Shown: in pieces, positions 33,119 through 59,620 of the stretch
How positions within the stretch are numbered: the stretch's first letter is position 1
Layout: every line of letters begins with the position of its first letter
Assembly: GCA_964635045.1 (NCBI GenBank)
Contig: CAZWMJ010000004.1
Location: 2,205-66,204, forward strand
From: an uncultured Gammaproteobacteria bacterium
Lineage (GTDB): Bacteria; Patescibacteriota; Microgenomatia; Levybacterales; UBA12049
DNA: 64,000 nucleotides
Reading direction: 5' to 3'
Made by a program: the position numbers and the translations under genes
Notes under the pieces: model-generated
Databases searched by the model: none
Seen by the model: the letters and a program-made list of their open reading frames with translations, nothing else
What the model was told of the DNA's origin: nothing

Positions 33119-33200
33119 AGTTTATGGTTAGTAGTTTACTATAAACTATTAATCATGTCAAGTGAGGTTAGTGGTTGGGAAAAAAACCAAAAGTCAAATA

Positions 33201-36200: not shown

Positions 36201-39200
36201 TCCGATATCGGCCAGCCGATCGCCGATACCCAAGGGATTATATTTGGTGGCCACTTCCAGCGCTAAATTCATCGCTTCCCGGGTAGCAAAAGCCCCGGCT
36301 CCTCCCAAAACTAACGTTGTGACTCCGGCTTTGGTCGCCCTAAGTATTCGCTGATTTCGCGCTCTCTTGATGGTGTTTTTGACTGCCTCCCTTCGATTGG
36401 CTATCAGCCGATCTCCCAGGGCTGTCTGAAGATTTTGGGAGATATTATCGGCGCCCGTTTCCAGATTGGCCGCCAAAGTATCGGTTAACAGATTAACTCC
36501 TGCTTCCACCAATTGTTGGCTGGTTAAGTTTTGGGTGGTTACTCCTAATCCAGACAACTGCTGGCGCATGGTATCAAGAGCTGGCTGGTTGGCGTTAAGA
36601 TAATCAACCAGTTGCTTCTGCGCTCCCGCGCTGGAGCTTTCCATGTCTGTTTGTAAACGCTGATAACCCTGGGTATTGCCATTATCTACTTTGAAAAGAT
36701 CAATGCCCCTCTCGCCCATCAGGCGAAATCTGGCGTTCACATCTGAGATCAGGGCCATCACCCGCATTGAGTCTTGCGGCGCTGTTGTTTCAAACTGTTG
36801 AGTTATCTCAGCCATGCCGCGTTTGCTAAAGGCCACCCGGGCCAATTCATTTCTTCGTCTGGCATCGGGAGCAAAGGTATATCCCAAGGCCTCCTCCACA
36901 TTGTGGTGCTGTATTTCCACTCCCGATCTTTCCCACTCCTGGGCTCCTCGCATCAGGGCAAATGCTCCAATACCTCCCATCATGCCTCCTGCACCTGCTA
37001 CCAAACCTCCGCCAATAAAGCTGCCGGCGGTTTTTCCTCCCCATTCTCCCAGCTTTGTACCCAGGAAGACACCACCGGCCCAGCCAATGGGTTGAGCTTT
37101 TATAAGTCCCTGCAAAAGAAGAGCCCGGTTCCCCGCCGTGCTAAGATACATATCGGGTACCACGGCGCCCGTTCGGCCATCTCTTATCTGCTGATACAAT
37201 TGCAATACCCGTTCGTGGGTGGGACCGCGTTGGGCGGCGAGGCGCTCCAGCAGGGTATGGCCCAGTTCGCCTCTGGTTTCCGCCAGCAGTGTTCCCACGT
37301 TTACTTTTAATACCACATCTTTAAGATAATTATCGATGTCAGCATTGGTTTGGAGAACCTCCTTCATCTGGGACAGTTGCGGTTCGTACACCTCTTGAAA
37401 CACTTTTACCAGATCGCTGCCGTAGCTTAAGGACAAGCGAAAATTCTGTGCAAAATCCGGATTTTTGCTTTGGGCATCGTACCAATCTAAAAACTTCTTG
37501 CTGAAGAAAAATTCCTGCATTTCTCGCTGGACGCCAAGATAGGTGTTGTTGTTGAGGGTGCCGGCGATGCCCTCTCTCAGCAGGGGAGTGAGGACGCGAT
37601 CTATGTAAAAGTCTCGCATGGGGCCTTCCAGCACCAGTTGTTGAGCCAGACGGCTTTCTCCGGCATCGGTATGGACTTCAAACTGTTGCCTGACGCTGTC
37701 TGTTAATCTCTTGGCCACTGCCTGTGAAGCGGCGTAGTCGCCTGTCACAATGGTTTTAAGCTGATTATAGAGATCTGTCATGCCGTTTTGATTTAGTAAA
37801 TCTTGTGATTGCTGTGAGAGTTGAGGTTGGTTTATCTCCTCCTCCTCCATAACCTGCCGCAGCTGCCCGACCAGTTGCACTCGTCTTTGCTCCCGTTCTG
37901 TTTCGGAAGAGGTGATATCGTGAAAGCGGTCTCGCGCCCAGCCGGTGGCTCTTCTTAAACCTCTTCCTCTTTCTCCCCTGACTCGGGCGTCAATCACGTC
38001 GTCAAGCTGATGAATAAACTCAACGGGTAGGGCAGTGGTATTTATGCCTGTTTGGGCCATCAGCTTCATGGCATTTTTGCGGTCCTTGTCATACAGGCCT
38101 GCGGCTGCGAATGTACTTTGCCATAAACGCCTGATGATGCGGTTGGGTCTAAAACCTTTTGCTTCCCATTCTTTTCTTCGTTCTTCGCCAAGTTGGACGG
38201 CCACCAGGTCTGCCAAAAAGGCCATAACTTCCTGTTGATTTTCTTTCCCTTTTTCCCCTGCCTCTTTAATTTTTTGCTTTTCTGAAACAACGGAAGATAC
38301 GAGTTCCGTAGGAAGGGTGGGCGGAGGGGGTTTCTCTCCATCTTTTGTTGGCCCGGGCGGTAAGTCTCCCGGCGGTCCCTCTTCTTTAATCGGCGGTTCT
38401 ACCGGTCCCGTCGGTGGTTCTGTGGTATCCGGCCCCGGCCCCTTTTTCTCCGGTGGTGTTCTTCCTCCCCCCGTAGGTTCCTGTGTCCCTCCCTCAATGA
38501 ATCTTTTTCTGGTAACCTGGGGGTTTCTCTCCAGTTTGATGGGGGTTTTCACCCCTCTCTCAAACCGCTCTTCTCCTTTGAGGGCCAGAAGAAACAGGTG
38601 GAGGCTTAAGGCATCTATCTCTCCTTTCATCTGTTCTTGAAGTTTTTGTTTGCCAATATCCTGGTTAAATCCCTGGTAGTTATCAATCATAGTTTCAAGA
38701 CCGGGTTTGCTGAAATCTATCTCTTTTAAGATGTCTGCCATATCTAAAGCTACCGGGGTGAGAGTTGACAGATCTGCTGTTGATGCTCCAGCTGGTGCCG
38801 TATCCACATTTCTTTTATGCTGAAGAGCTTCTTTAATGTTGCGGTAGAATCTGCCTCTGACTTCCGCATAGGTTAGTTTGGTGGTAAATCTATCTTCCGC
38901 TGATTGAGGCTTGGCCAGTCTTTCTCTAAGAGACTGGATCATATTTCTATAGGAGGGAGGTTTACCTTCCTGTTTGAGAGTATTGGCAATATCCGTAATG
39001 ACAATACCTACTCCCGGATATCGTTTCTCCGGAAAGGCAGTCATCAGGGTGGGGTCTTCCACATCTGCCAGCCTATCTTCAATTAGTCTAAAGGCCAGGA
39101 AATCCTGTCTGGCTTCCCTTAACATCTCTCTCGGTTTGCCTTCATCATCCAGATAGTAGGCCACATAAGGTCCTTCTGCCTGATCTCTCACTCCCAGTTC

Positions 39201-39722
39201 TCCCACCTGGGTAAGTACGGTATTAGGCCTGTTCTCCGCAAATTGAGTACGCAGATCCTCAATCATTCTTTGTTGTTCTTCCTGCCGCATGGTAGTAAAG
39301 TGAGCTTCAATTGTGCGGGCCAGTTCTCTCAGATCAGGATGATTTTCCCCCATCAGAATCTGTTTCACCCAATCATCACCGGAATATGCTTCTGAATCCC
39401 TAACTCTCTTATCTATCTCTCCCAGCTTTCTCTTTCGATACTGATCATCATTCTCCCCCGTATTCTTGGGAAGATGAGAGGCAATCTTATCATCGGCAAA
39501 CTTATCTCCCAGATAGGCATCTGCCCTTTTAAATTCTGCAGACTTTTTATATGCCTCAAGGGGAATACCTAAATCTCTTCTCTCATCATGAATTTTTAAA
39601 GAAGCCGGTCTTCCCTGTTGGGCAGGAACTGTGTCTGGTTGGGGAGAGGTTTGGCTTCCCTCTCCTGAGGGGGCGGGGGGAGGGGAAGTTGGTTGTTCTG
39701 GTGTCGGGCTTTCTCCGGCCAT
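33201..39722 (-). CDS. giant protein 2 (2173 aa): shared N-module + unique body with glycine-zipper hydrophobic segments
   Basis: One uninterrupted ORF. The N-terminal region of about 420 aa is identical to giant protein 1. The body is non-repetitive. Gly-rich hydrophobic stretches are GGLVAGAGGMMGGIGAFALM and GVTTLVLGGAGAFA, and there is a K/E-rich spacer. I recognise no catalytic domain by eye. Confidence 0.8.
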   Translation of the reverse strand: MAGESPTPEQPTSPPPAPSGEGSQTSPQPDTVPAQQGRPASLKIHDERRDLGIPLEAYKKSAEFKRADAYLGDKFADDKIASHLPKNTGENDDQYRKRKLGEIDKRVRDSEAYSGDDWVKQILMGENHPDLRELARTIEAHFTTMRQEEQQRMIEDLRTQFAENRPNTVLTQVGELGVRDQAEGPYVAYYLDDEGKPREMLREARQDFLAFRLIEDRLADVEDPTLMTAFPEKRYPGVGIVITDIANTLKQEGKPPSYRNMIQSLRERLAKPQSAEDRFTTKLTYAEVRGRFYRNIKEALQHKRNVDTAPAGASTADLSTLTPVALDMADILKEIDFSKPGLETMIDNYQGFNQDIGKQKLQEQMKGEIDALSLHLFLLALKGEERFERGVKTPIKLERNPQVTRKRFIEGGTQEPTGGGRTPPEKKGPGPDTTEPPTGPVEPPIKEEGPPGDLPPGPTKDGEKPPPPTLPTELVSSVVSEKQKIKEAGEKGKENQQEVMAFLADLVAVQLGEERRKEWEAKGFRPNRIIRRLWQSTFAAAGLYDKDRKNAMKLMAQTGINTTALPVEFIHQLDDVIDARVRGERGRGLRRATGWARDRFHDITSSETEREQRRVQLVGQLRQVMEEEEINQPQLSQQSQDLLNQNGMTDLYNQLKTIVTGDYAASQAVAKRLTDSVRQQFEVHTDAGESRLAQQLVLEGPMRDFYIDRVLTPLLREGIAGTLNNNTYLGVQREMQEFFFSKKFLDWYDAQSKNPDFAQNFRLSLSYGSDLVKVFQEVYEPQLSQMKEVLQTNADIDNYLKDVVLKVNVGTLLAETRGELGHTLLERLAAQRGPTHERVLQLYQQIRDGRTGAVVPDMYLSTAGNRALLLQGLIKAQPIGWAGGVFLGTKLGEWGGKTAGSFIGGGLVAGAGGMMGGIGAFALMRGAQEWERSGVEIQHHNVEEALGYTFAPDARRRNELARVAFSKRGMAEITQQFETTAPQDSMRVMALISDVNARFRLMGERGIDLFKVDNGNTQGYQRLQTDMESSSAGAQKQLVDYLNANQPALDTMRQQLSGLGVTTQNLTSQQLVEAGVNLLTDTLAANLETGADNISQNLQTALGDRLIANRREAVKNTIKRARNQRILRATKAGVTTLVLGGAGAFATREAMNLALEVATKYNPLGIGDRLADIGAWVARTPVRRLFGVDLKNVSADPNPQNISIGPGQELEVGVASGGDRVLTIIQTDPNGNKVPLPAPPMWLHQQADGQTNLIIAGEPKDLPSDIQTALANWRNQLTDVHNFLNHMQDITRGGVGQTPDEVLGGGDFRGSFLVNTHDITQSNWLNPEGKPYDVWAQEAGRIDPATGLTEIGKMSITAPDGTMLHGFMRPDGTFDVDFNHYGNVDLGLSNTPNTPIKNMLQLMDTEAWGIDQPDPLKNPFLFHFTPPTATEYIPPTELTFTRVDWGLPIPWRRRPPEAPERAGKPAIEQGKGKTPAETEKATEKKKEEEKKKTEELESQIAFAHPDWEKLKKSRGTEEIWDNLSQIRQIAANSEVIKRGLPIYYPGAFFDITYPLAFTNGANFVFVDYAGYVDKNGKPTTESVENEIKDIGGNIKSTTDTGVLGKGGKRVIKFDWAGKERTVTLYAEDATKFHPEELKDGTAFVVIKAPTPFARDGDAIENIPGEIFSPEALSTIWGNLAVGGFIHRPPAKILPPEAVGFNQLITVPPAEGELTGVPRPRPYPLYQKVENRPEIPQLMKLDRELDLAIYEKQGDMAGSIYADTVKGFTDRLRRVKVWYDQLTPEEKTEVGKTLKTVLLPETLTPELREKFIANGKVYGLGDPAKLEQYFNQTKEAAHSVFPELTALEAGLATGRIPIEQVSDAESQEIMGKVAIHGHSFHGDMLTAQILQQEGLAPKHKIKLGNTTVFLSSTPYNLADGRIAVVGYVEKEGQIVARTFYRSNSQGVWRYLPNYTPGKNKGDIDWYDKGYGEESVTLPIMLQQALAEFSKESAPILNVSNPNLIFAGTARDRNSPGTLVLTVEAEPKKLEGDFYPPTEDSKNKPEQLQFTNPSMSPDFNKKLTSWKQKTSLYGDVTIEVFPSKDGKLQYMFCRDGKGRAWIGGVEDDSEIQTVGLRKTWIKAGDLTTPAYEYKTADVDQTGGYGNEADRSSQYVDMFTNYLSKIPVIQEYLKTA
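38453..39707. repeat. 1255-bp direct repeat, copy 2 (5' coding module of giant gene 2)
   Basis: See 30786..32040. The copies diverge only in the first few codons (MADPTPEQ versus MAGESPTPEQ) and downstream of ...GGGRTP. Confidence 0.9.
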
Positions 39723-40218: not shown

Positions 40219-40851
40219 TTAAATCTTTAATTTAGTCCTTGCAAGTTTAAGGGCTTCGCTTTGGAAAAATTTTTTAATCTCCTCCCAGGAAGTTGAGATT
40301 AACATTTTAGGCATCTGGTCCATTTCTGCATCTGCAAAATAATTTAAGCTCCTGATTACCGAGTATATATGCTCTTTTAAAACGCCATATTTTTGATCAT
40401 AAAATTTAAGCATCTCCTCTAAAGAAAACTCTTTTGCTAGAAAAAATAAATCAATAAAATCTCTTTTAGTTCCTCTATCTTCTAAGGCATGAACTTTCAT
40501 AGCTGCAATGTCTTCTTTTTGGAGAATTTGAATGCCCTCAAAATCTACAGTTTTTTTGATGAGCTGGTACTGATAATAAAACAGGCTGAATTTTGTCTGC
40601 CCAACCTTACCCCAGACAGTTCTCCATGCCGTGCCTTCTTCCTTGTATTCTGGTAATTGATCAAGCTCTCCGGACAATGTTTTTTCATCAAAAACTTCCC
40701 GGGTAAAAAAATCCAAATCAACAGAAATTCTATGGTTTAAATGTAGAGCCAATGCGGTACCACCAGCCAGATAGCTTTTTTTAACAATGCTTATTTTAGA
40801 TACTAGCTTGAGAGCCCGAATGGTATCCGGGAGTAAGGCTTTTGTAAGCAT
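40219..40851 (-). CDS. AbiEii/AbiGii-type nucleotidyltransferase toxin, second copy
   Basis: 210 aa. The motif YLAGGTALALHLNHRISVDLDFFT and the C-terminal DFIDLFFL block parallel 20103..20768 (DFIDLYFIL). Confidence 0.7.
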   Translation of the reverse strand: MLTKALLPDTIRALKLVSKISIVKKSYLAGGTALALHLNHRISVDLDFFTREVFDEKTLSGELDQLPEYKEEGTAWRTVWGKVGQTKFSLFYYQYQLIKKTVDFEGIQILQKEDIAAMKVHALEDRGTKRDFIDLFFLAKEFSLEEMLKFYDQKYGVLKEHIYSVIRSLNYFADAEMDQMPKMLISTSWEEIKKFFQSEALKLARTKLKI

Positions 40852-44804: not shown

Positions 44805-45476
44805 ATGATTTTTCTTATCTTATTTTTAGCGGAGATCTTGATGCTTTTTTTCCTGTCCCGTTTTGTAACGCGTTTGCTGTCGCAGGTTTTTTTCCGCCTA
44901 AGCCGCAGTCAAACAAAAACCATCTATCTTCTGTCTTTTCTTTTTCTGCCGGGTGTAGTTATTCACGAATTAGCCCATTTGTTAACGGCGGCGGTGTTGT
45001 TGGTGCCGGTGGGAGAGGTGGAGTTTATACCAAAAGTCACTGATGGGGGAGTCAAGCTGGGCAGTGTAAACATCGGCAAAACAGATCCGTTTAGAAGAGC
45101 TATTATCGGGGTGGCGCCGGTTTTGATCGGGATGATGATACTGTTGGGAATTGGCTACTATTTTATACAGAGTAATTCCATTATTTATACTATCGAGTCG
45201 GGAGCTTTAAGAGTATTTTTATACGCGATAATTGTTTATTTCCTGTTTGCTATTAGCAATACCATGTTTTCCAGCAGGAAAGACGTGGAGGGATTGTTGG
45301 AAGTGGGTTTGGTGGTCATTATTCTTTTTATAGCTCTTTATTTTACCGGTTTTCGCGTCAACTTTTCACTATCTGAAAATTTATCCCAATTCTTGAAAAC
45401 ATCGGATGTTTTCTTACTAATACCTCTTTCTATAGATGTGGTCTTGTGGGGAATTATCAAAATTTTCCGTGGATGA
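44805..45476 (+). CDS. polytopic membrane protein with HExxH motif (M50/DUF3267-like putative metalloprotease)
   Basis: 223 aa with 5-6 TM helices. The motif VVIHELAHLLTA lies within or next to a TM segment. Confidence 0.55.
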   Translation: MIFLILFLAEILMLFFLSRFVTRLLSQVFFRLSRSQTKTIYLLSFLFLPGVVIHELAHLLTAAVLLVPVGEVEFIPKVTDGGVKLGSVNIGKTDPFRRAIIGVAPVLIGMMILLGIGYYFIQSNSIIYTIESGALRVFLYAIIVYFLFAISNTMFSSRKDVEGLLEVGLVVIILFIALYFTGFRVNFSLSENLSQFLKTSDVFLLIPLSIDVVLWGIIKIFRG

Positions 45477-46272
45477 TTGGTCCATGACCTTTGCCAATTT
45501 TTAATGTTTGGCCTTTTTTAATAGCAACGTTTACATAATTTTTGGCAGTTCCCACCGCTTCTTTAATATTTTTTCCTTTGGCCAACTCGGCGGCGATGCA
45601 AGAGGCTAGTGTACAGCCCGTGCCGTGTGTGTTTTGAGTATTAATTTTTGGCGCGGTAAACTCATGAAAGCGCTTACCGTCAAATAAAATGTCGATAACA
45701 ATCGAATGATGAATGATAAGTGATGAAGGATGAATTTTTTCAAGGTGGCCGCCTTTTATCAATACATTTTTAGCGCCCATTTTATGCAGGATGACAGCGG
45801 CCTTTTTCATCTCGTTAACATTTGTAATTTTTAGACCGGTTAACTCCTTTGCTTCGTCAATGTTGGGGGTAACAATAGCGGCCAGAGGCAGTAATTTTTT
45901 AACCAATGATTTAAGCGCCTCTTTTTCCAAAAGCCGCCCGACTGTTTTGGAAACCATGACCGGATCAACCACCAGTTGTTTTATTTTGTAACGCGCTGCT
46001 TCTTCAACCACTGTTTCCACAATTTTTTTGTTAACCAGCATGCCGGTTTTCCAAACGTCGGCTCCGATATCCGACATCACCGAGCTAATCTGCAGTTTAA
46101 CAAACTCCGCCGGCAGCGGAAACACGCCGTCCAAACTGACCGTATTTTGGGCGGTTACCGCCGTTACAGCGCTTAGGCCATAAACTCCTCTGGCAAAAAA
46201 GGTTTTCAAATCCGCCTGTATTCCTGCCCCTCCGCAAGGGTCGGATCCGGCAATAGTGAGAACTTTATACAT
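45457..46272 (-). CDS. thiD: hydroxymethylpyrimidine/phosphomethylpyrimidine kinase
   Basis: 271 aa. Motifs are [22 protein letters not shown] and [17 protein letters not shown]. Confidence 0.93.
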
Positions 46273-46358
46273 AAAATATAATTTTCAATTTACAATTTAT
46301 AATTCTCAATAAATTTACAATGTTTCAATTTGAAAATTAGGTCATTGAAAATTAATAA

Positions 46359-47270
46359 TTAAAAATTTTTAAGATGGTTGAAGCCTCTTGCCTCTAACCG
46401 TTTTTTTCTTCCTTTGACATCCACAATCCACCACCCATCCTTTTTATCAATAATTTCTCCAATCACAGTAATCTTTGTTCCGGTTTTCTTAAATATTTCC
46501 GTGATTAATTTCTCTGTACTTGCCGGCGATGCGGTAAAGCACAGTTCGTAATCTTCTCCTCCATTGAGAGCCGCATCGAAGGAGGCAGAAGGAGCAATGG
46601 GCAGTTTATCGGCAAAAATACGAACTCCGACAGCGCTTTCCTCGCAAATATGAAGCAAGTCCGAAGACAATCCATCGCTTAGATCAATCATGGATGTAAC
46701 AACGCTGCTTCTCGCAAGAATTTGTCCTTCTCTTATCCTTGCCGCCGGCACTACCGCTTTACGTCCCAGCGCACCTGTTAACAATACCGCATCTCCCACC
46801 TTTGCCCCATTTCTTAAAACCAAATGTTTTTTATCAATTTCTCCCAAAACAAAAATATCAATCACGAGTTGTTTACCTGATGAGATATTCCCGCCGATAA
46901 GTGAGACGCCGTAGTCCTTGCACGCCTTCCCAAAACCTTCATAAAGTTCCTCCAGAAAATCTCTATTTTTCGGAATCACCAGCGAAACCAGAATATGTTT
47001 TGGTGTTCCTCCCATGGCCGCAATGTCGGAAAGGGCCACCGCCACCGCCCGCTGTCCCAATTGTTTACCCGAACCCGCGCAAATTTTGTTAAAATTTGTT
47101 CGGGCGCGGGTAAAATGCACTCCCTCAACCTGAGTGTCTGTTGTGACTAAAAGATATTTATCACTTCTGCAAAGCAAAACAGCCGCATCATCGCCTATAC
47201 CGACAATCACGTCGTTGCCATAGGCAGGTAATAACTTTTTGACTTTTTCAATAAAAGAAAACTCGTTCAT
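46359..47270 (-). CDS. thiL: thiamine-monophosphate kinase
   Basis: 303 aa. Motifs IGDDAAVL, TTDTQVEGVHF and GGNIS are AIR-synthase-like ThiL signatures. Confidence 0.9.
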   Translation of the reverse strand: MNEFSFIEKVKKLLPAYGNDVIVGIGDDAAVLLCRSDKYLLVTTDTQVEGVHFTRARTNFNKICAGSGKQLGQRAVAVALSDIAAMGGTPKHILVSLVIPKNRDFLEELYEGFGKACKDYGVSLIGGNISSGKQLVIDIFVLGEIDKKHLVLRNGAKVGDAVLLTGALGRKAVVPAARIREGQILARSSVVTSMIDLSDGLSSDLLHICEESAVGVRIFADKLPIAPSASFDAALNGGEDYELCFTASPASTEKLITEIFKKTGTKITVIGEIIDKKDGWWIVDVKGRKKRLEARGFNHLKNF

Positions 47271-51810: not shown

Positions 51811-52146
51811 TTAATTATTTGTTTGCAACGATTTAGCCGTTGTAATAGCTCCTTCCATATTGCCTTGTTTAATATAATCTCGCATGGAATTTAAGGCGTC
51901 GTCTCTTTTTTGATCGCTGATTTTTCTAAATTCTTCCACATACAATTCTTGCGCCTCTTTATATTTTCCTCCCAGCGTCTTTAATTTATTTAACAAATCC
52001 TGCCAGTCCGTAATGGGCAGAACCGCCAAAAAATCCGCCGCCAGCTGACGGCTTTTATCAACATCAATTTTATTTTCCCGCAGATGAACAATTATTAATT
52101 CCACCAATTCTTTTTTGACCTGTTCCACTTCCTGCTGAAGATCCAT
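51811..52146 (-). CDS. small helical protein, unknown function
   Basis: An internal Met (MDLQQEVEQVKK...) is chosen as the start. The longer track ORF (to 52305) would overlap the upstream regulator gene by 113 nt. Confidence 0.5.
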   Translation of the reverse strand: MDLQQEVEQVKKELVELIIVHLRENKIDVDKSRQLAADFLAVLPITDWQDLLNKLKTLGGKYKEAQELYVEEFRKISDQKRDDALNSMRDYIKQGNMEGAITTAKSLQTNN

Positions 52147-52192
52147 CAATTTAATGGTGGCACAAAAGAGAAGTTGTGTCAATGTTTGCGAC

Positions 52193-53425
52193 TTACGGTA
52201 AAAATCTAAATCCCCGACCCTTGACGGTGAGAAGATGTTTGGGGTTGTCCGCTTCATCCTCGATTTTTTTGCGCAGTCTGTGAACCATCTGATCCAGCGC
52301 CTCATCGCTGACTCCGGTTTGGGTTTTACTGTCTGTCCAAACAGTATTTATGACCTCATCCCGCTCCACCACCCGATTGGGATGACCAATTAAAAATTTG
52401 AGCAGTTTGAATTCTTGGGCTGTCAGGTCAACAATTGGATCATCTCCAAAATAAATCTCGTTGGAAGAATCATTAAGTCTGATTGTTTTTGGCACCAGCG
52501 TTTGGGGAAGACCAAGTTTGACAAATTCATTGTAAAGAGGCGGGGCGGGCTTATTTCTATCTTGGGTGGGCAGCGACTGCCAAATTTCCAGCAAAGAGTT
52601 TTTGATAAGATTATGGGAAAGTAAAAAGTCGGTCAACCCTTCGACTCCCTTCGGTCGCTCAGGATTGCCTAGGGCAATTTGCGCTGACAGTTTCATCAAT
52701 TTGCTGTGGCCGCCGGTTAATCTAACAATTTCTTTTTTGACCGTTTCAGGAAGCGATTTACCATATTCTTTTTCTAAAACAGCAAGCCTAAAGTTATTGG
52801 CGACTTCATCGTAGGGTTCAAGATAGATCAGATTTTCCGCAAAAAATTCATAGAAGGCCTTCATAACATTTTCCGCTAACAGCTCTTTCATAGGCCTATG
52901 AGTGGAGAAAACAATCGGTATTTTGCCGCCTCTAACTCGCAGGCTATAGAGACCGGCATAAAAATCGGGGGGAATTTTATCGGTAAATTCGGAAAAGCGG
53001 TCGAAGAGAAAAACGACGGTCAACTGCTGGATGGCCTTTTTGAAGTTTTGGAAAAGAACCAGGGGGTCAGCCAGTTTGAGCGCTTCTCTGAAAAGCGGAT
53101 ATATTTGATTGTGTAGTTTTTTATCTTTCTCAACACCGGTAAGTAAAGCTAAGAATAAAAATTTGATTAATTCCACAGTTTCAAAGCTGGGGATTTCGGC
53201 AAAATTGACATAAACAAAGAGATAGCCTCGAAAGGCGTCCCCTTTTGAAGCTAAATGATAGTTTCGTAGTTTCTGATGGTAAGCGAGGAGGCGCAGCACC
53301 GTTGAGCGGCCGGCGCCGGGAGGGGAGATGAGTTGGCAGGACTGACCATGGATGACAAAGCCTAAAATCTGGCTTATTTCCTTTTCTCGGGCAGTGATGG
53401 GATATTGTGTTTCGAAATGGTCCAT
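52193..53425 (-). CDS. AAA+/STAND-like ATPase fused to an OmpR/PhoB-type winged-helix DNA-binding domain
   Basis: 410 aa. The P-loop is ISPPGAGRSTVLRLL and a Walker B-like motif is VVFLFDRF. The C-terminal trans_reg_C pattern is LTAQEFKLLKFLIGHPNRVVERDEVINTVW...LDQMVHRLRKKIE...LLTVKGRGFRF. An in-frame mini-repeat is inserted (GNPERPKGVEGL). Confidence 0.75.
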   Translation of the reverse strand: MDHFETQYPITAREKEISQILGFVIHGQSCQLISPPGAGRSTVLRLLAYHQKLRNYHLASKGDAFRGYLFVYVNFAEIPSFETVELIKFLFLALLTGVEKDKKLHNQIYPLFREALKLADPLVLFQNFKKAIQQLTVVFLFDRFSEFTDKIPPDFYAGLYSLRVRGGKIPIVFSTHRPMKELLAENVMKAFYEFFAENLIYLEPYDEVANNFRLAVLEKEYGKSLPETVKKEIVRLTGGHSKLMKLSAQIALGNPERPKGVEGLTDFLLSHNLIKNSLLEIWQSLPTQDRNKPAPPLYNEFVKLGLPQTLVPKTIRLNDSSNEIYFGDDPIVDLTAQEFKLLKFLIGHPNRVVERDEVINTVWTDSKTQTGVSDEALDQMVHRLRKKIEDEADNPKHLLTVKGRGFRFLP

Positions 53426-53430
53426 AATGA

Positions 53431-53553
53431 TAGACGGTAGAAGATTGAAAATAGAAGGTAGATTTTTGAAGGTAGAAGCTGGAAGATAGACAAATCAGAT
53501 CTAACTTCTATCATCCATCTTCAAATTACCATCTTCTACTTTCTACATTCTAT
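53431..53553. promoter_or_regulatory. purine-tract / pyrimidine-tract motif array in divergent intergenic region (candidate operator array)
   Basis: GGTAGA(AG) occurs at 53436, 53457 and 53471, and GATAGA at 53485. Inverted counterparts follow: CTTCTATC at 53505, CATCTTC at 53516, CCATCTTCTAC at 53529, and further TTCTAC/TTCTAT repeats. Confidence 0.4.
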
Positions 53554-53640
53554 AGTCTTTCTTAATTATCGTCAATCTGTAATCTATCTGTCATGTAAAT
53601 ATCAAGCACTTCGGCTTCGTTCAGGTTAAACTGCCCTCAT

Positions 53641-54354
53641 ATGGAAAAAGCAGCAGTAGAACAGCAAATTTATCCGGCGGCTCAACCCGTCTCTGACGCG
53701 GTTGTAGCTTTGCCTTTAACAGCAGAACAACAAAGAGCGGAAGAACAGCAAGCCGTGATGGAGGCGGAGCGATTATTGAGAATGGAGCCGAAGAATGCTT
53801 TGGAAGAGATTAGAGGGGAACTTCGGCGCTCGGCATTGGACAAAAATCAAACTCCCGATGAAGAAGAAATCGGTCAAGCGGCGGAAGGTGAATTAAGTCA
53901 AAGAACAAAACCGGCAGTAGAAAAGCGCGAGGCGGAAGCTTTCCTAAAAATGCCCAAAGAAGCGGCTTTGCAGGTGATAAAAGAGACGCTTAGAAATAAA
54001 TATCTGCTGGAAGGTAAAGGGGTGGTAAGCGATGGGCAGTTGTTGAAGGAGGCGGAAGACCAGTTTTACTACCAAAAAGCGCAGGCTCTCACTATATTGG
54101 GAAAGGTTAATCGGAAAATTACCGAAGACAAGCTATACCGAAAATTGACCAAGGATACAAGACTGATGGGCAGAATTGCCAAAGAGGCTAAAGAGGGCAA
54201 AGATCCTAACGTACTTCTTTTGGCCGAGTATCTGAAGAAAAAAGATAAGAAAGGATTAACCATGTGGCTGATGCTGGCTATCTTGGCAATATTCGGCAAG
54301 GTTATCTACGATAATCTGTTTGAACCAATGACTTTGGGAAAGGACAAAATATGA
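53641..54354 (+). CDS. tail-anchored helical protein, paralog of the 50672..51802 C-half
   Basis: 237 aa. The C-terminus is AEYLKKKDKKGLTMWLMLAILAIFGKVIYDNLFEPM. Its stop overlaps the next start (ATGA). Confidence 0.6.
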   Translation: MEKAAVEQQIYPAAQPVSDAVVALPLTAEQQRAEEQQAVMEAERLLRMEPKNALEEIRGELRRSALDKNQTPDEEEIGQAAEGELSQRTKPAVEKREAEAFLKMPKEAALQVIKETLRNKYLLEGKGVVSDGQLLKEAEDQFYYQKAQALTILGKVNRKITEDKLYRKLTKDTRLMGRIAKEAKEGKDPNVLLLAEYLKKKDKKGLTMWLMLAILAIFGKVIYDNLFEPMTLGKDKI

Positions 54355-57300
54355 AAGAGGAAAAAGCACTTGCAAATCATGGTCAAACCGTATACTCTGA
54401 AAGGGGAAAGGATAATATGGCAGAGCCGGTAGCAACTTTAGAACGACCTAGCGGGCGGGTCTCCAATGGAGACTCCAATGGAGAAGCGCGTGCAGCTTTA
54501 AGAGTCACGAATAAAGCCGTTTCGAAGGAGGAACAAGCAAAAGAAGAAATTGGGAAAGCGATCAAGCAGTTTGTCAAAGAAGAGGTTGATAGAGAGGAAG
54601 CTCCACGTTTAATTGAGCAGGAGGCGCAAGCCGCCACAGTACCGGATGGCGTAAAAAATTATTTCCCCCATATTCCTGCGGGAATGGGAGGCGCTGTTTC
54701 GGATTTTTACCAAGAGCTGGGAAAATTAACAACCAAAGACGCCTATATCTACTATAAATATATCCCCGCCGAATTTTTCATCAGACACTATCTTAGGCTG
54801 AGAAAGCAGGCGGAGGAAAAAGGTCAGGACATTTCCTTTCTGTCGGAGATTAAGAAAGAACTGGCAGACCGCAAGATAAACGCGGACAGCTTATACAGTC
54901 AAGCTAAGGGATCCCTGACCATGGAGCGGCAGAGGAGAAGGCATTGGAGAGGGGAGGTAAAGGCGGGAAGAGTCAGCGCGCAGGATGCGGCATTTGCCAT
55001 CGGTCGTGATGTGGCCATGGCAGGCGGAGGGGCGAGCGGACTTGATTTAAGCGGCATCACCGACCCCATACTTCGGGCAAAAGGAGAGGAAATAAATGAT
55101 CAAATAGCCATACTGGGTGAGCAATATAACGAGCTTCGTAGCCGTTGGGGTGAAGTAAGCGGCCTAAACGGGACAGTACCCCACGATCAAAAAAAGCTTC
55201 TTCTTAATCAGATAAATGAGGCGATGAAAAGAGCGCGGGAAGAACAGCGTAAAGAGGAAGAAAAATATCGATATACCAAGCCGGGAGTAGGTATTAGCGG
55301 AGAACGTACCCTTTTTCCAGAAGATATTGCGAAGATTGAAGCGGATATAGATGAGTTGACGAAAAAAGCAGTGGAAAAAGCCAAACTTCCCGATGGCAGA
55401 GAGCTTAAAGGAGAGAATATTGATTACTATTTTAATCGCATATTTAACAGGGTAGATTCATTAAGAAGCTTAGAGTTTGACAAGGCGATGGGTTATGGAG
55501 CAAACAGAGAGCATGAGGATTTTACCAGAGAACTTAGTAGCATGAAAAATGAAGCAAGCAGAAAGTATCAGGAAGCAACTGATCCCAAAGAGCGTAAGCA
55601 TCAGGAGTATAAACGGGAAATAATTCAGCGATTTCTGGATAAATATTCGGAGGAGACTGATGTGAGAAGACTTTTACATAATGCCTTTTTTATCGCAGAT
55701 ACAGAGGGAGAATTCAAGGATTTTGCCGGGTATTGCAAGTCTTTTGCTTCAAAGTATGCCGATCAGGCCTTTTTGGACAAGCCGGAGGTGGCGGTGGCCT
55801 TGCGTGTTCGGGAATATATACTGTATGAAATAAAACGGGAGAATAAGGGGCTGATACCGCCGGAGCTGGTTAGTTATTCGCCAGAAAGAGGAGAGAGTGT
55901 TTGGGAACAGCGCTCAAAAGAACTGCTTACAATAGAAAATAATAATGGCACATTTGGCAGAACACTTGATGATTGGGAGATTGACAGAGCTATGTCTCTT
56001 TCCCGGGGCCTGGGTATGGTATTTTTGCGTTTTCCGGAGATTATAGCGGAAATAGCCACTCCCACCCCCACAGGAACGATGCAGTCTAAAAAAAGTATAG
56101 TTTGGGAAAAACTGGCTTGGGATTTAAATCCGCTGGATCATCGCATCAAGCGCTACGAAACCCAGTTTGGGTTAAGAGCTATTCTTTACGCGGCCAAAAA
56201 AAGGATGCAAGGACAAAAGCTGTGGAATCAAGACGAGCTTCATAATTTTGTGGCGCTGGATGCCGTGGCCACCATGGTTGGGAGGATTATTGACTTTAGA
56301 AATATCTTCAGAAACGGCGGACCTTTCACTTGGGTACCATGGAGACCATTTGTGGCCGCCATAGATGAAGGTGTAGATATAGACGGATCTGCCGGCGATG
56401 CCATCGAAAAATATCGGGGTTTTTTGGGCACAGATCCCGGTATAGCGGCCAAAATGTTTTTTAACAGATATAAATATAAAAATATGACTTTCGATAAACT
56501 TGAGTTTATGAGGGATGCCCCAAAACAACAATACTCAAGTGATAAGGCTAAGCTTGAGGCGTGGCAGGGTAAAGACGGTAAAGGTGGAAAAAAGAAAGAG
56601 CTGGAAGGTAAATATAAAGGAGAATGGGGAAAGGCAAACGAAGAAATGTGGAAAGGCGCCGCCAACAGAGTGCCTCATGTGATCTTAAGACTGATGCTGG
56701 ATGAGCATAACGGACTTTTATCGGAAAAAGAGCGGTTAGATTTAATTGAAAAAATATCTGGCAACTTGGGGGTAAGCTATTTTTCTACGGACTTCTCTAA
56801 AATTGAAAGAGATTTAGTCGCTGCCAAAGAAAATATGATGAAGCGAAGAAGAGAAAAGGGAAAGGATTTTACAGAGGCCGAAAACCAGTTGTTGGAAGAA
56901 GATTTTAAGATTATAGGAAAAGGTGAGGAGCCAGAGCAAGATCCAGCAAAGGAACAGAGGCGACAAGAAGAAATAAATAGACGAATAGAAATGGCCAAAG
57001 AGCTGCGGAAGATGGTGGTAGACCGTCTTGACAAGGATGATGATTTAATGAAAAAGCTTTTGGAAAGAGACGGAGTTGACCAGGATGTCAATACCAACTG
57101 GTCCTATTGTCCAACCCTGGAAGACACCGCTTTGGACGAATATCGTTATGAGCAGACGGGAGCAAGAGGGTTTTTCTCCAGAAAAATCACCGACGCCTTT
57201 TCGGTGTCCGAGGCTGGAGATGAGCTTCTTAATTTAATTAAGCAGATGCCCAATTTTCGCAATGCCGAGGATATTGTGGAGCAGCTTAAGAAAATTTATT

Positions 57301-57719
57301 ACAAAGTGGAAGGCTATAACAAAGAGGCGGCTCAGGATGCTATTGGCACCATAGCTATTGGCATTATTCGCTTTTTTGAGAAAGACGGCATCTTGAAAGT
57401 GCCCATTTATGGAGAAATGAAGCAGTTTCTGAACGCATGGCGTCCTGGAGACAAGGCCAGAGGCAATTCTTTTGCCCAAACCATCTATGGGGGCAGGGCG
57501 ATGGCGTGGGACTCGGACGATATTTATAATTTTACCGAGATGCTTAAAACCATGCTGGTGGATAAAGACCTAGGCGCCAAGCTTATTAAAAATATAAGGA
57601 ATGAAACAGGAGGGACGGCCCTGAAGGGATTTTTCCGAAAAAGCAAATTGGCCATATATCTGCTAATTCTTTTTGGTTTCTACGAATTTGCCAGTAAACT
57701 GATGACGGAGAAACAGTAG
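54351..57719 (+). CDS. large (1122 aa) charged helical protein with a single C-terminal TM anchor, unknown function
   Basis: One uninterrupted ORF, translationally coupled to 53641..54354. The C-terminal TM is KLAIYLLILFGFYEFASKLM. No nucleotide-binding motif seen. Confidence 0.65.
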   Translation: MKEEKALANHGQTVYSERGKDNMAEPVATLERPSGRVSNGDSNGEARAALRVTNKAVSKEEQAKEEIGKAIKQFVKEEVDREEAPRLIEQEAQAATVPDGVKNYFPHIPAGMGGAVSDFYQELGKLTTKDAYIYYKYIPAEFFIRHYLRLRKQAEEKGQDISFLSEIKKELADRKINADSLYSQAKGSLTMERQRRRHWRGEVKAGRVSAQDAAFAIGRDVAMAGGGASGLDLSGITDPILRAKGEEINDQIAILGEQYNELRSRWGEVSGLNGTVPHDQKKLLLNQINEAMKRAREEQRKEEEKYRYTKPGVGISGERTLFPEDIAKIEADIDELTKKAVEKAKLPDGRELKGENIDYYFNRIFNRVDSLRSLEFDKAMGYGANREHEDFTRELSSMKNEASRKYQEATDPKERKHQEYKREIIQRFLDKYSEETDVRRLLHNAFFIADTEGEFKDFAGYCKSFASKYADQAFLDKPEVAVALRVREYILYEIKRENKGLIPPELVSYSPERGESVWEQRSKELLTIENNNGTFGRTLDDWEIDRAMSLSRGLGMVFLRFPEIIAEIATPTPTGTMQSKKSIVWEKLAWDLNPLDHRIKRYETQFGLRAILYAAKKRMQGQKLWNQDELHNFVALDAVATMVGRIIDFRNIFRNGGPFTWVPWRPFVAAIDEGVDIDGSAGDAIEKYRGFLGTDPGIAAKMFFNRYKYKNMTFDKLEFMRDAPKQQYSSDKAKLEAWQGKDGKGGKKKELEGKYKGEWGKANEEMWKGAANRVPHVILRLMLDEHNGLLSEKERLDLIEKISGNLGVSYFSTDFSKIERDLVAAKENMMKRRREKGKDFTEAENQLLEEDFKIIGKGEEPEQDPAKEQRRQEEINRRIEMAKELRKMVVDRLDKDDDLMKKLLERDGVDQDVNTNWSYCPTLEDTALDEYRYEQTGARGFFSRKITDAFSVSEAGDELLNLIKQMPNFRNAEDIVEQLKKIYYKVEGYNKEAAQDAIGTIAIGIIRFFEKDGILKVPIYGEMKQFLNAWRPGDKARGNSFAQTIYGGRAMAWDSDDIYNFTEMLKTMLVDKDLGAKLIKNIRNETGGTALKGFFRKSKLAIYLLILFGFYEFASKLMTEKQ

Positions 57720-57722
57720 TTA

Positions 57723-59495
57723 TTATGATTGTTGACCCCCGCCTCCTCCTTGGCTTGGATAAGGAGCCACACCTCCGCCCCCTACTGCCGCATTGAGGGC
57801 GCCGCTCCAATCTCCTTTTTTCAAAAACCCAAAGGCCGAACCGGCCCTTTTCATACTGACCAGACCGCCATAGGGAGAGAAGACATTATGGGCGATATCT
57901 TTTCCCATCATCGGAGCGATCATCGCTCCCTGACCGATGCTGGCTCCGAACTTGAACTGGGGGGCTTTAAGGGCTTCTTTCATCATGTTCACTACCTGGG
58001 GAGTTAAAAGCAGTATGGCAAGACCAATCAAAGAACCGAGAGGACTGAATTGCGCTCCCGATGGATTGCCAACAAGGGGAGGCACAAATATTTCCTTAGC
58101 CGTACCCGGTTGGTTGAAGGCTTCCATAAAAACCTTTCCCAGAAGCAGCATGCCGATGGTGACCGGAAAAGCGGACAGATTGGCCAGAATGTCTTTCAGC
58201 CAGGCCCCAAAACCGACCGGACTGCCCGGTATCAGCCCAAAAACAATCCAAAAAGGAGCCATCACCACATCAATCAGGATAAAAACATAGGCCTTGAGAA
58301 GCTCGAAGCCAAGCCGAACAAGGGCAAAAAAAATAGCTATGAGCATAAATATAAATACAATTAGAAATGGTAGTCCCCATCTCAAAATCGTTTGCATAAG
58401 TGGATACATTACACCTGCGGCAATCCAGCCCGCAACGGGTCCAGTGGGTATTTTAACCCCAAGCCATGTTCCAGTGTCCGATAAATCGTTAATATGACTT
58501 CCAAACGCGAAGGCTGAAAATAAACTAATCAGATTCACCATAGTATCTACGATACTAAAATCTCCACTGCCAGTAACAAACTGCCCAATATTTCCTATGA
58601 AACTGAGAGGATTAAAGACAGCACCAAAATCCGTCTTTAAATTCAAAGAACTGGCTATAATTTCCCGAAAAGACAGGGCTAGGTCTTTACTCATACCGGA
58701 AATGCTTATCAAACCGCCCATTCCGTCTACAGGGTTTTTCCCCTGTAAGTTCGCAGGATTTAAATCCTTGAAAACATTAGGATCAAGTTTCATAAGCGGC
58801 GCGCTGCCCGAAATGATATTAAATACCAGATAAATCATCACCCACATCAAGTCAATCAAAAATCCGGCAATGGCAAAGGAAAAAGTGACCAGGATAAGAC
58901 CGATAATTATTTTGGGGATTTGATTTTCAATGGTCATGACAGTTCTGGGATCAATTTTGACTCTCAGCATAATGGCCAAACCGATAAAAACAAAAGCTAC
59001 CACAAAGCCCAGATAGACGATGTTTCTGAATGTTGACCACAGACCCATCAACGGAGAAAGAGAAGTAAAGCCGGTTCCCTGAGCATAGGTTTTTTTGACG
59101 AAACCGAAGTTGTCAGCCAGATAGCGGAAATAATCGCCGCTGTGAAGCGGCGGAGTAAACAGGGTACTCATTAATTGGGTTGTAACTCCAATTGCCCCTC
59201 CACCCTGTCCTGAGTTTGCCGAAGGGACAAATCCTATATTGCCTGTTTGTTGATCTATTCCCAGACATGGTTGTTGGGGATTGGTGGGGTCAATGCCGGC
59301 CAGCTGGCAACTCATGGCTGCCATGACTTCAATCATCACGTTTTGAGTCCAATTGTGCAGATTATTGGGTACATTGGGGGGAGCGTAGGGATTGGGTGCT
59401 TGGGCTGACACCGGCAGGGCGGCTAGTAACAAGTAACAAGTAACAAGTAACAAGGAGGCGAGAAAAAATAATTTTATTCGGGCAGGAAAACGCAT
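57723..59495 (-). CDS. polytopic membrane protein, VirB6/TrbL-like T4SS channel candidate
   Basis: The start is chosen at MRFPARIKLFFLASLLLVTCYLLLAALPVSAQA, a signal peptide. At least 8 TM helices follow, with a Gly-rich C-tail. The track ORF extends to 59609 through a mini-repeat. Confidence 0.5.
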   Translation of the reverse strand: MRFPARIKLFFLASLLLVTCYLLLAALPVSAQAPNPYAPPNVPNNLHNWTQNVMIEVMAAMSCQLAGIDPTNPQQPCLGIDQQTGNIGFVPSANSGQGGGAIGVTTQLMSTLFTPPLHSGDYFRYLADNFGFVKKTYAQGTGFTSLSPLMGLWSTFRNIVYLGFVVAFVFIGLAIMLRVKIDPRTVMTIENQIPKIIIGLILVTFSFAIAGFLIDLMWVMIYLVFNIISGSAPLMKLDPNVFKDLNPANLQGKNPVDGMGGLISISGMSKDLALSFREIIASSLNLKTDFGAVFNPLSFIGNIGQFVTGSGDFSIVDTMVNLISLFSAFAFGSHINDLSDTGTWLGVKIPTGPVAGWIAAGVMYPLMQTILRWGLPFLIVFIFMLIAIFFALVRLGFELLKAYVFILIDVVMAPFWIVFGLIPGSPVGFGAWLKDILANLSAFPVTIGMLLLGKVFMEAFNQPGTAKEIFVPPLVGNPSGAQFSPLGSLIGLAILLLTPQVVNMMKEALKAPQFKFGASIGQGAMIAPMMGKDIAHNVFSPYGGLVSMKRAGSAFGFLKKGDWSGALNAAVGGGGVAPYPSQGGGGGQQS

Positions 59496-59539
59496 TCTGT
59501 TTTGAGTATGAAGATTTTTTAATCGGATGTCAAGCGTAA

Positions 59540-59601
59540 GCGCCGACACTGAGCCCTGAGCCTGCCTGCCCTGAACCTGCTGAATGGGTCGAAGGGTCGA
59601 A
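59540..59601. repeat. GC-rich mini-repeat of the CCTGAGC...GTCGAAGG family
   Basis: The sequence CCTGAGCCTGCCTGCCCTGAACCTGCTGAATGGGTCGAAGGGTCGAA has related copies at 52637-52663 (minus orientation), 60705-60722 and 62416-62434. Confidence 0.6.
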
Positions 59602-59620
59602 TGTGTCAAGTAAAGCGTTT

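Follow-up and report, generated by a model that had tools for sequence, protein, structure and literature searches.

The locus analyzed here raises the question of why a symmetric array of short repeats lies beside the gene for a predicted DNA-binding regulator. Both are found in a 64-kb stretch of contig CAZWMJ010000004.1 (the window, in whose numbering all coordinates are given), which is chromosomal and includes thiamine genes, dnaA, and dnaN. In this window, the open reading frame (ORF) of a 410-amino-acid (aa) regulator is separated by a 215-nt spacer (53426 to 53640) from the ATG at 53641 of a divergent gene pair, and the spacer holds two arms in head-to-head orientation, with about nine imperfect heptamers in each, GRTAGAA and then its complement. 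A first-pass annotation had read this array as the operator of the adjacent regulator. Our analysis points elsewhere, in that the array is very probably an ORF-less copy of a palindromic repeat element of the intervening-sequence (IVS) type, judging from its resemblance to elements that encode the IVS protein (IVP, or S23p; the four-helix-bundle family PF05635 of Pfam and TIGR02436). This is a known kind of element in an unusual place, a probable mRNA leader rather than an rRNA gene.

A phased heptamer palindrome in the divergent spacer

The regulator gene and the parts of the array are as follows.

52193 to 53425, minus strand: regulator ORF, 410 aa (ORF, Pfam, AlphaFold2/Foldseek, and family alignment).
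53429 to 53491, plus strand: regulator-proximal arm, with units GATAGAC, GGTAGAA, GATTGAA, AATAGAA, GGTAGAT, TTTTGAA, GGTAGAA, GCTGGAA, and GATAGAC.
53492 to 53499, no strand: central loop, AAATCAGA; full-length relatives have an IVP gene of ~360 nt at this position.
53500 to 53562, plus strand: distal arm, of complementary sense, with units TCTAACT, TCTATCA, TCCATCT, TCAAATT, ACCATCT, TCTACTT, TCTACAT, TCTATAG, and TCTTTCT.
53431 to 53558, no strand: probable ORF-less IVS-type element, ~128 nt, with termini TAGACGGTAGA … TCTATAGTCT that approximate the family termini GACGRTAGA … TCTAYCGTC.

The proximal arm, which ends 3 to 5 nt from the regulator start codon, has a conserved core, T-N-G-A, every 7 nt. 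Six TAGA tetramers fall in one 7-nt phase (GGTAGA at 53436, 53457, and 53471; GATAGA at 53429 and 53485; AATAGA at 53450), as do the five TCTA cores of the array (53500, 53507, 53535, 53542, and 53549), and the phased motif count was reached in 0 of 100,000 shuffles of either arm. Self-matching stands at 0.62 at a lag of 7 nt, 0.61 to 0.67 at 14 nt, and 0.57 to 0.67 at 21 nt versus ~0.25 at other lags, the lag-7 value of both arms being within the top 0.02% of the window; Tandem Repeats Finder reports a period of 7 (8.9 copies, consensus GATAGAA) and also one of 21. A repeat search returned one imperfect palindrome with arms of 67 nt each (53424 to 53490 and 53500 to 53566) that are 70% complementary and separated by 9 nt, which sets looser limits of 53424 to 53566. 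The symmetric head-to-head array described in the first-pass annotation is real and in fact more regular than was stated there, with one 7-nt phase per arm; the three GGTAGA and the inverted motifs listed there are all present in the spacer. GATAGA, which had been counted once, occurs twice, and the mention of an almost pure purine tract was an overstatement, the left arm being 73% purine and the right arm 30%. This local phased cluster is unique in the window and carries the signal, rather than the window-wide count of the 8-mer GGTAGAAG, which is weakly enriched (5 matches versus 1.5 expected, reached in 2 of 100 shuffles). No further operator copies were found in the window, where GGTAGAAG and GAAGRTAGA occur elsewhere only as isolated matches inside genes.

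Relatives of the palindrome that carry an IVP gene

We compared the locus with 86 regulator-centered loci (L001 to L086) and with 80 metagenomic loci (L087 to L166) retrieved by a scan with the IVP of L081. The latter locus is the closest relative of the window: it is syntenic, its regulator is 76% identical, and the same spacer holds an ORF-less array of the same type. Directly after the regulator stop codon, L081 additionally has a PF05635 "23S rRNA IVS protein" gene of cluster 10 (L081:5573-5935), which is flanked by …AGACGGTAGATGATGGAAGGTAGAAGATGG… on one side and …TTTCTACCATCTACCTTC…TCTACCGTCTAT on the other; the window has an empty version of this 3' IVP site. Full-length copies are present in L081, L084, L033, and L087 to L166, and the IVP of the full-length relatives passes TIGR02436 with 79.8 bits against a cutoff of 24. 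The proximal arm of the spacer array is strongly diverged between the two loci.

We recovered 52 IVP ORFs in the 86 regulator-centered loci, most of them bracketed by inverted tandem-heptamer arrays. The heptamer differs by IVP clade (GGTAGAA, CTAGTCG, AAAGTTC, AATTTCA, AAAGATT, TTGTTAT, and others), such that IVP cluster 10 goes with GGTAGAA and cluster 14 goes with CTAGTCG. A Mantel test of IVP distance against array composition gave a rho of 0.19, with 0 of 2,000 permutations as high. The test of the regulator against array type was weakly positive (rho of 0.17; 41 of 2,000 permutations as high), a signal that probably owes something to the common descent of entire loci. Relatedness of the IVPs lowers the array distance from 0.76 to 0.54, whereas relatedness of the regulators lowers it only from 0.76 to 0.73, and cluster-10 IVPs that lie at different sites are 83 to 92% identical between genomes whose regulators are only 35 to 56% identical.

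Full-length members of the GGTAGAA family are ~520 to 560 nt long and comprise 8 to 9 GRTAGAA heptamers, an IVP gene of ~120 codons, and the complementary arm. Nearly all of the 80 metagenomic loci have 3 to 9 TAGA in the 120 nt before the IVP gene and 3 to 9 TCTA in the 120 nt after it, and these copies share their outer termini (GACGRTAGA…TCTAYCGTC), a T-rich mid-arm unit, and a TACAAT ~10 to 15 nt before the IVP start. Among the sequences analyzed, inverted arrays of this family number 24 without an ORF and 58 with one. The ORF-less copies, of which the window copy is typical, have loops of 3 to 54 nt and total lengths of about 115 to 140 nt; when independent copies are aligned, T.GA is invariant every 7 nt in one arm and TC.A is invariant in the other. 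Identity of the window arms to those on either side of IVP genes is 74 to 77%, versus a null maximum of 52%. Elements of the family are dispersed over rRNA, pilin, RpiB, and other loci, and at the regulator leader site they vary among relatives: L083 has none, L085 and L084 have one of a different family, and L120, whose regulator is 36% identical, has a full-length cluster-10 element at the same leader position.

Two further observations concern the architecture of these elements. The IVP-proximal left arms of the metagenomic loci (e.g., L096:770-868) contain a σ70-like site, TTGAAG-N17-TACAAT, ~10 to 15 nt before the IVP start codon, and by our own reading of these sequences, the heptamer array may double as the IVP promoter region in full elements. 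In L107, L108, L113, L130, and L132, three to four ORF-less GGTAGAA palindromes lie within 2 to 4 kb, beside an ORF-bearing copy; such clusters, which in L130 and L132 are inside or beside the 23S rRNA, suggest local proliferation.

Relationship to rRNA intervening sequences and other repeat elements

Several of the 80 metagenomic loci lie in rRNA operons. Alignment of L130 to the Rfam large-subunit rRNA model delimits insertions of 830, 820, and 181 nt in the 23S rRNA, of which the 820-nt insertion holds an IVP gene and one ORF-less array and the 181-nt insertion holds another ORF-less array of the same class as that in the window. Members of the array family are likewise found inside the 23S rRNA in L123 and L110 and just after the 16S rRNA in L128, L109, L122, and L136. 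In the window, Rfam searches at gathering thresholds detected only tRNAs, with no known RNA family in the spacer and no rRNA gene.

The IVS of the Coxiella 23S rRNA has been described as a selfish element that carries an S23p ORF. The inverted repeats that bound it pair into a stem that RNase III cleaves, and a variable number of tandem heptamers (GACAGAT) directly precedes the ORF (PMC4990558). Excision by RNase III has been shown for the IVSs of Coxiella, Salmonella, and Leptospira, and the function of the IVP family is unknown (PMC4990558). In bacteria of the candidate phyla radiation (CPR), insertions in rRNA have been reported to contain 23S_rRNA_IVP ORFs (PMC11270868). Full-text literature searches gave no description of IVP genes with flanking inverted heptamer arrays outside rRNA, the Coxiella IVS being the only relevant precedent.

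The element in the window resembles the 23S IVSs of Leptospira, Coxiella burnetii, and Brucella in being a palindrome whose full relatives have terminal inverted repeats around a ~120-codon gene for a four-helix-bundle protein, in sharing heptameric repeats with the Coxiella IVS, and in belonging to an array family with members in the 23S rRNA and the 16S-23S spacer. ORF-less short forms, which are a known form of IVSs, exist in this family as well. It differs from the 23S IVSs in that the window copy probably sits in the leader of a protein-coding gene, with many relatives at gene boundaries of a pilin cluster, and in that the whole arm is made up of 8 to 9 phased heptamers with an invariant TNGA core; unlike the IVP-bearing IVSs, the window copy has no PF05635/TIGR02436 ORF and only 8 to 9 nt between its arms.

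Comparable mixtures of likeness and difference emerge with two other classes of repeats. As an ORF-less, multicopy element of ~130 nt with terminal inverted repeats, ORF-bearing relatives, and presence or absence among relatives, the window copy is similar to a miniature inverted-repeat transposable element, but the full-length form has no transposase gene and the arms are tandem heptamers rather than unique terminal inverted repeats. The short tandemly repeated repetitive sequences of heterocystous cyanobacteria are, like the arrays here, made of heptamers in tandem between genes, and one genome can hold several sequence families of them; the arrays described here differ from them in being inverted pairs tied to an IVP gene.

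The palindrome as a probable part of the regulator mRNA leader

Between the array and the divergent pair, we distinguished the following features.

53565 to 53605, minus strand: promoter-like region of the regulator, with TTGATA at 53605 to 53600, TACAGA at 53581 to 53576, and GATAAT at 53570 to 53565 (two of the three flagged by a consensus scan).
53606 to 53640, plus strand: conserved segment beside the divergent gene, with a -10-like TAAACT at 53627 to 53632, 8 nt before the ATG at 53641.
53641 to 57719, plus strand: divergent pair of 237 aa (53641 to 54354) and 1,122 aa (54351 to 57719), syntenic in L081.

Of 87 regulator upstream regions, 55 share a conserved block, CTTGATATTTAC…TACAAT. 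In ~20 orthologs, this promoter motif lies 31 to 58 nt from the ATG, from which we infer a very short or absent leader; the distance is 175 to 181 nt in the window, L081, and L082, where the extra sequence is the array, and 414 to 684 nt where an IVP gene is present. Since the promoter block is beyond the distal end of the array, the whole palindrome would be transcribed, most likely as part of the 5' leader of the regulator mRNA. On the other side, most orthologous loci retain a counterpart, AGTTTA(A/C), next to the divergent start codon, and the placement of TAAACT suggests that the divergent transcript may be nearly leaderless. If the regulator has an operator in this spacer, the conserved promoter block at 53565 to 53640 is more probably the candidate than the array. 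No family could be assigned to either member of the divergent pair, which is weakly conserved beyond close relatives.

A short element situated between the regulator promoter and the ATG would thus be transcribed as a 5' leader, and its two arms would pair into a long imperfect stem, as they do in rRNA IVSs. RNase III would then cut this stem and leave a very short leader like that of the insertion-free orthologs. By analogy with the rRNA IVSs, such processing of the regulator leader is quite possible, and we propose it tentatively; were the stem so cut, a near-leaderless mRNA would be restored, which would offer a simple route to the tolerance of such insertions. The hairpin predicted on either strand has a folding energy of -45.8 or -44.2 kcal/mol, with z of about -5 (-5.5 for the former). 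The phased TNGA core would fit either recognition by a protein or a stem able to form in several registers. Because the IVP clade covaries with the heptamer, an IVP supplied in trans is the leading candidate over the regulator for a protein that recognizes TNGA. Actual binding of the arrays by an IVP seems rather doubtful; it would be compatible with processing by RNase III.

A number of observations weigh against the interpretation of the array as an IVS-type insertion whose transcript folds and is processed. For 51 arm pairs flanking IVP genes, sense versus antisense folding stood at 27 versus 24 (Wilcoxon P = 1.0), i.e., there is no strand bias. Arms of the same element pair only slightly better than foreign combinations (identity of 0.55 versus 0.50; -49.6 versus -44.0 kcal/mol), and in 7 of 60 elements the own arm ranks first among 16 (P = 0.08); RNAalifold applied to 18 ORF-less copies gave an unfavorable covariation term (+1.24), with compensatory change in 5 of 24 pairs. 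Given the lack of strand bias, the weak coevolution of arms, and the absence of net covariation, it is the phased TNGA motif that is conserved. A tblastn search for a homolog of the IVP, the candidate trans-acting partner, recovered none in the 64-kb window, and no recognizable or consistent target site duplication was present at 12 inspected junctions. The array is, moreover, retained at the same site in L081, whose regulator is 76% identical. Finally, in 55 complete genome loci, an IVP occupies 21 of 108 regulator-adjacent gaps (14 upstream and 7 downstream) versus 8 of 271 other gaps within 4 kb (odds ratio of 7.9; P = 4e-7, with kinship ignored), and 12 of the 80 metagenomic cluster-10 copies lie ≤2.5 kb from a regulator homolog, 10 of them as immediate neighbors.

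The neighboring cluster-10 copies are mostly located 1 to 15 nt after the regulator stop codon, in either orientation. As different IVP families occur beside the regulator, either several independent insertions or long retention is implied. The enrichment could stem from site preference, from permissive positions, or from a functional tie to the ORC/MuB-like ATPase (see below), so some link in function between the element and the regulator is possible. In L121, the element terminus (TAGACGATAGA) begins with the TAG stop codon of the regulator itself.

A regulator with a P-loop module and an OmpR/PhoB-type winged helix

Pfam detected a Trans_reg_C domain (PF00486) at regulator residues 332 to 408 (E = 9e-21; 74.2 bits versus a gathering cutoff of 26.2) and nothing besides, with no match to an ATPase family. 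The best sequence matches among solved structures are the DNA-binding domains of PhoB (E = 7e-12) and OmpR, and Foldseek searches with the C terminus recovered the DNA-binding domains of YycF, OmpR, and PhoB at a TMt of 0.69 to 0.75. We accordingly delimit the domain as follows.

Residues about 312 to 410 of the regulator: C-terminal OmpR/PhoB winged helix (Pfam, PhoB match, and Foldseek).

An AlphaFold2 model computed with 27 homologs as input is confident (pLDDT of 87.6), and its nearest structures over the whole chain in Foldseek are ORC4, archaeal Orc1/Cdc6, the archaeal ATPases 2qen and 2fna, MuB, and TnsC. As modeled, the N-terminal part is an ORC/Cdc6- or STAND-like P-loop module. The sequence and the family alignment furnish a Walker A motif (PPGAGRST/GAGRST), a Walker-B-like FLFDRFSE, and a TGGHSKL, with G37, G39, R40, D142, R143, F144, and G239 invariant. 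The Walker A lysine is replaced by arginine (Arg40 in PGAGRST) in all 27 aligned family members, in which FDRF is likewise invariant; these substitutions and constraints suggest a nucleotide-binding switch in which hydrolysis may be altered or absent. In our own reading of the alignment, TGGHxKL would correspond to TGGNPLFL, a motif of AAA_16/STAND regulators. A few homologs of the regulator give weak matches to PF13191, PF13401, or PF24883. The recognition helix of the winged helix is nearly invariant among orthologs (GV[ST]D[EQ]ALDQM[IV].RLR.K[IV]E). There was no Response_reg match to the regulator in Pfam, and the response-regulator models of NCBIfam match it only in their C-terminal parts, with scores far below the cutoffs.

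The proposal in the first-pass annotation of a P-loop NTPase joined to an OmpR/PhoB-type winged helix with no receiver domain is thus borne out by Pfam, the PhoB match, AlphaFold2, and Foldseek. Its further description of the protein as SARP/AfsR-like holds as an analogy; the regulator is not a member of that group because it has no BTAD and its domain order is reversed, the OmpR-type domain being C-terminal rather than N-terminal and followed by BTAD, as in AfsR/SARP. BTAD, NB-ARC, and TPR were all without a Pfam match in the regulator. With STAND/AAA_16 factors such as MalT, the LAL regulators of the LuxR family, and SARP-STAND proteins of the AfsR type, the regulator shares the combination of an oligomerization-type P-loop NTPase with a DNA-binding domain and a TGG..L motif. 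It differs from MalT, LAL, and AfsR in its small size of only 410 aa, in the lack of a sensor repeat domain, in having no Pfam ATPase match, and in its Walker A (GAGRST; PGAGRST versus the canonical GxxxxGK[ST]). Orc1/Cdc6 and ORC4 match over the whole chain with the same order of AAA+ base, lid, and winged helix, but the TM-scores are only 0.30 to 0.43, the identity is 11 to 15%, and the sequence of the winged helix assigns it to the OmpR/PhoB type.

The family has >380 detectable members, whose source names are all generic and include no characterized member; the named sources are mostly Levyibacteria/Patescibacteria, and some record titles are labeled with other phyla. Pilin genes of the type IV secretion type lie ≤4 kb from the regulator in 54 of 55 complete loci; the regulator gene is conserved in Levyibacteria and shows linkage to such a pilin cluster. 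PADLOC matched neither the regulator nor the divergent genes to any defense-system model, including the Avs-like ones.

Alternative explanations of the array

As an operator, the head-to-head arrays would be the site at which the adjacent regulator oligomerizes and from which it controls both divergent units. The location in the divergent spacer, immediately before the regulator ATG and preserved in L081, is what one would expect of such a site, OmpR-family domains are established to bind repeated half-sites, IVP/array elements are ~8-fold enriched beside the regulator gene, and the T-N-G-A phasing resembles a protein-binding code. The operator reading fails because the array is a dispersed element that also flanks IVP genes at unrelated sites, including rRNA genes; ~20 orthologs of the regulator have no array at all; near-identical recognition helices go with unrelated heptamers (CTAGTCG, AAAGTTC, and AATTTCA), and the two sides of one regulator gene can have different heptamers (L010, L053, L057, L070, and L073); array type follows the IVP more closely than it does the regulator; and the period of 7 bp departs from the direct-repeat spacing of 10 to 11 bp that is typical of OmpR/PhoB sites, e.g., the pho box. 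With 80 IVP loci, 24 ORF-less copies, and copies in rRNA, the array is largely a common repeat unrelated to the distribution of the regulator, and we regard an operator function as highly improbable. A still more remote suggestion is that the locus is a replication-origin-like module, with an ORC/Cdc6-like initiator beside inverted iterons as at archaeal origins. The best Foldseek matches (ORC4 and archaeal Orc1/Cdc6) and the position of the inverted arrays at a divergent boundary, close to where the cumulative GC skew reaches a local minimum (46 to 52 kb), agree with it. This skew change, however, coincides with a switch in gene orientation; only 8 to 9 nt, and no AT-rich unwinding element, separate the arms; the same arrays are present in rRNA genes and at many other sites; the Walker A lysine is replaced by arginine; and in L083, which has no array, the chromosomal position of the gene is unaffected. 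Above all, the window contains a canonical dnaA (11266 to 12618; 450 aa) and dnaN (12758 to 13897; 379 aa) 40 kb away, which probably places the chromosomal origin near 11 kb. We rejected an origin at the array on account of these genes at 11.3 to 13.9 kb.

Other explanations accept the kinship with IVSs and differ as to what the copy now does. The array may be a domesticated cis-module, i.e., an IVS/IVP-derived element that has become a binding platform for an IVP encoded elsewhere and that tunes the regulator and the divergent operon. This appears unlikely, even if the covariation of IVP clade with heptamer type, the extent of the array from the promoter to the ATG and its preservation in L081, the recurrence of insertions at both ends of the regulator gene, and the TTGAAG-N17-TACAAT site available to the IVP in full-element left arms would all accord with it, and an invariant TNGA without position-specific pair covariation speaks for protein recognition rather than a fixed stem. 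The window has no IVP gene, no IVP is known to bind nucleic acid sequence-specifically, and joint inheritance of protein and arms as a unit would account for the covariation just as well. A more elaborate version, which we consider improbable, is that IVPs bind their own phased T-N-G-A arrays by a clade-specific code and that the modules home to, or stay at, both ends of the ORC-like gene, whose product would be either a host partner (e.g., in target selection, like MuB, TnsC, and IstB) or under IVP control via the arrays; if true, this would assign a first function to a family of proteins that has lacked an explanation ever since rRNA IVSs were first reported. It is improbable, too, that the array is a neutral relic, whether a decaying insertion or a microsatellite palindrome made by slippage, without function and tolerated in a noncoding leader. 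The imperfect arms (70% complementary), the strong divergence of the proximal arm from that of L081, the coming and going of elements at the site (none in L083 and another family in L085 and L084), and other heptamer arrays scattered through the window are all compatible with decay. Against it stand the invariance of T-N-G-A at 7-nt spacing across very different genomes and contexts, arms that are ~75% identical where the host proteins are ~35% identical, and the copies in 23S rRNA, which must at least allow ribosome function.

The interpretation of the array as an ORF-less IVS-type element has consequences for annotation, in that a symmetric repeat beside a regulator should not be read as an operator before a dispersed element has been checked for. 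IVS-type elements, known as curiosities of rRNA, also occur in mRNA leaders and at gene ends of CPR bacteria, in both ORF-bearing and ORF-less forms. The covariation of IVP clade and heptamer, the TNGA core, and the ~8-fold enrichment beside the regulator provide testable handles on the IVS proteins.

Neighboring genes and other repeats in the window

Downstream of the regulator, a listed ORF of 164 aa (51811 to 52305) overlaps the 3' end of the regulator gene by 113 nt; judged against L081 (L081:5492-6046), the true start codon of this ORF is probably the ATG at 52146 (MDLQQEV…), which is preceded by a conserved promoter-like site, TTGACAC…ATTAAA. The 46-nt gap that would remain (52147 to 52192) is the "empty site" of the IVP element found in L081. 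Genes of toxin-antitoxin type (AbiEii, DUF6922 with AbiEii, and RHH with PIN) occur at 40219 to 40851 in the window, ~11.3 kb from the regulator, and directly beside regulator homologs in L083 (L083:4326-5241) and L086 (L086:2337-3004).

A second ORF-less inverted heptamer array, of another family, (AATTTNC)n … (GAAAATT)n, is located at 46280 to 46345, in the 86-nt gap between genes for a phosphomethylpyrimidine kinase (45457 to 46272, minus strand) and an AIRS-domain protein (46359 to 47270, minus strand), and is similar to the sequences that flank IVP clusters 3 and 4 elsewhere among the loci. Heptamer-like repeats, TAGTTTA and GGTTAGT, are found at 33093 to 33180, between a MarR-like ORF (32120 to 33118) and an ORF of 2,173 aa (33201 to 39722). 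The latter and another giant ORF (26530 to 32049; 1,839 aa) share a duplicated segment in the same register, with identical short matches exactly 7,667 nt apart (31222/38889; 31917-31789/39584-39456). Five tandem GGTTTGA/GGTTTAA units at 6411 to 6461, followed by a perfect hairpin, ACCATCGCCATGGCGATGGT, lie inside an ORF with a Wzy_C (O-antigen-ligase-like) domain (5784 to 7100, minus strand). Four perfect tandem GTAACAA copies at 59420 to 59455 fall inside the 5' end of an ORF (57723 to 59609, minus strand), where they encode part of a predicted signal/transmembrane segment (…LLLVTCYLLL…); because slippage of a 7-nt unit shifts the frame, this is a possible phase-variation site, unless the true start of the ORF lies downstream.

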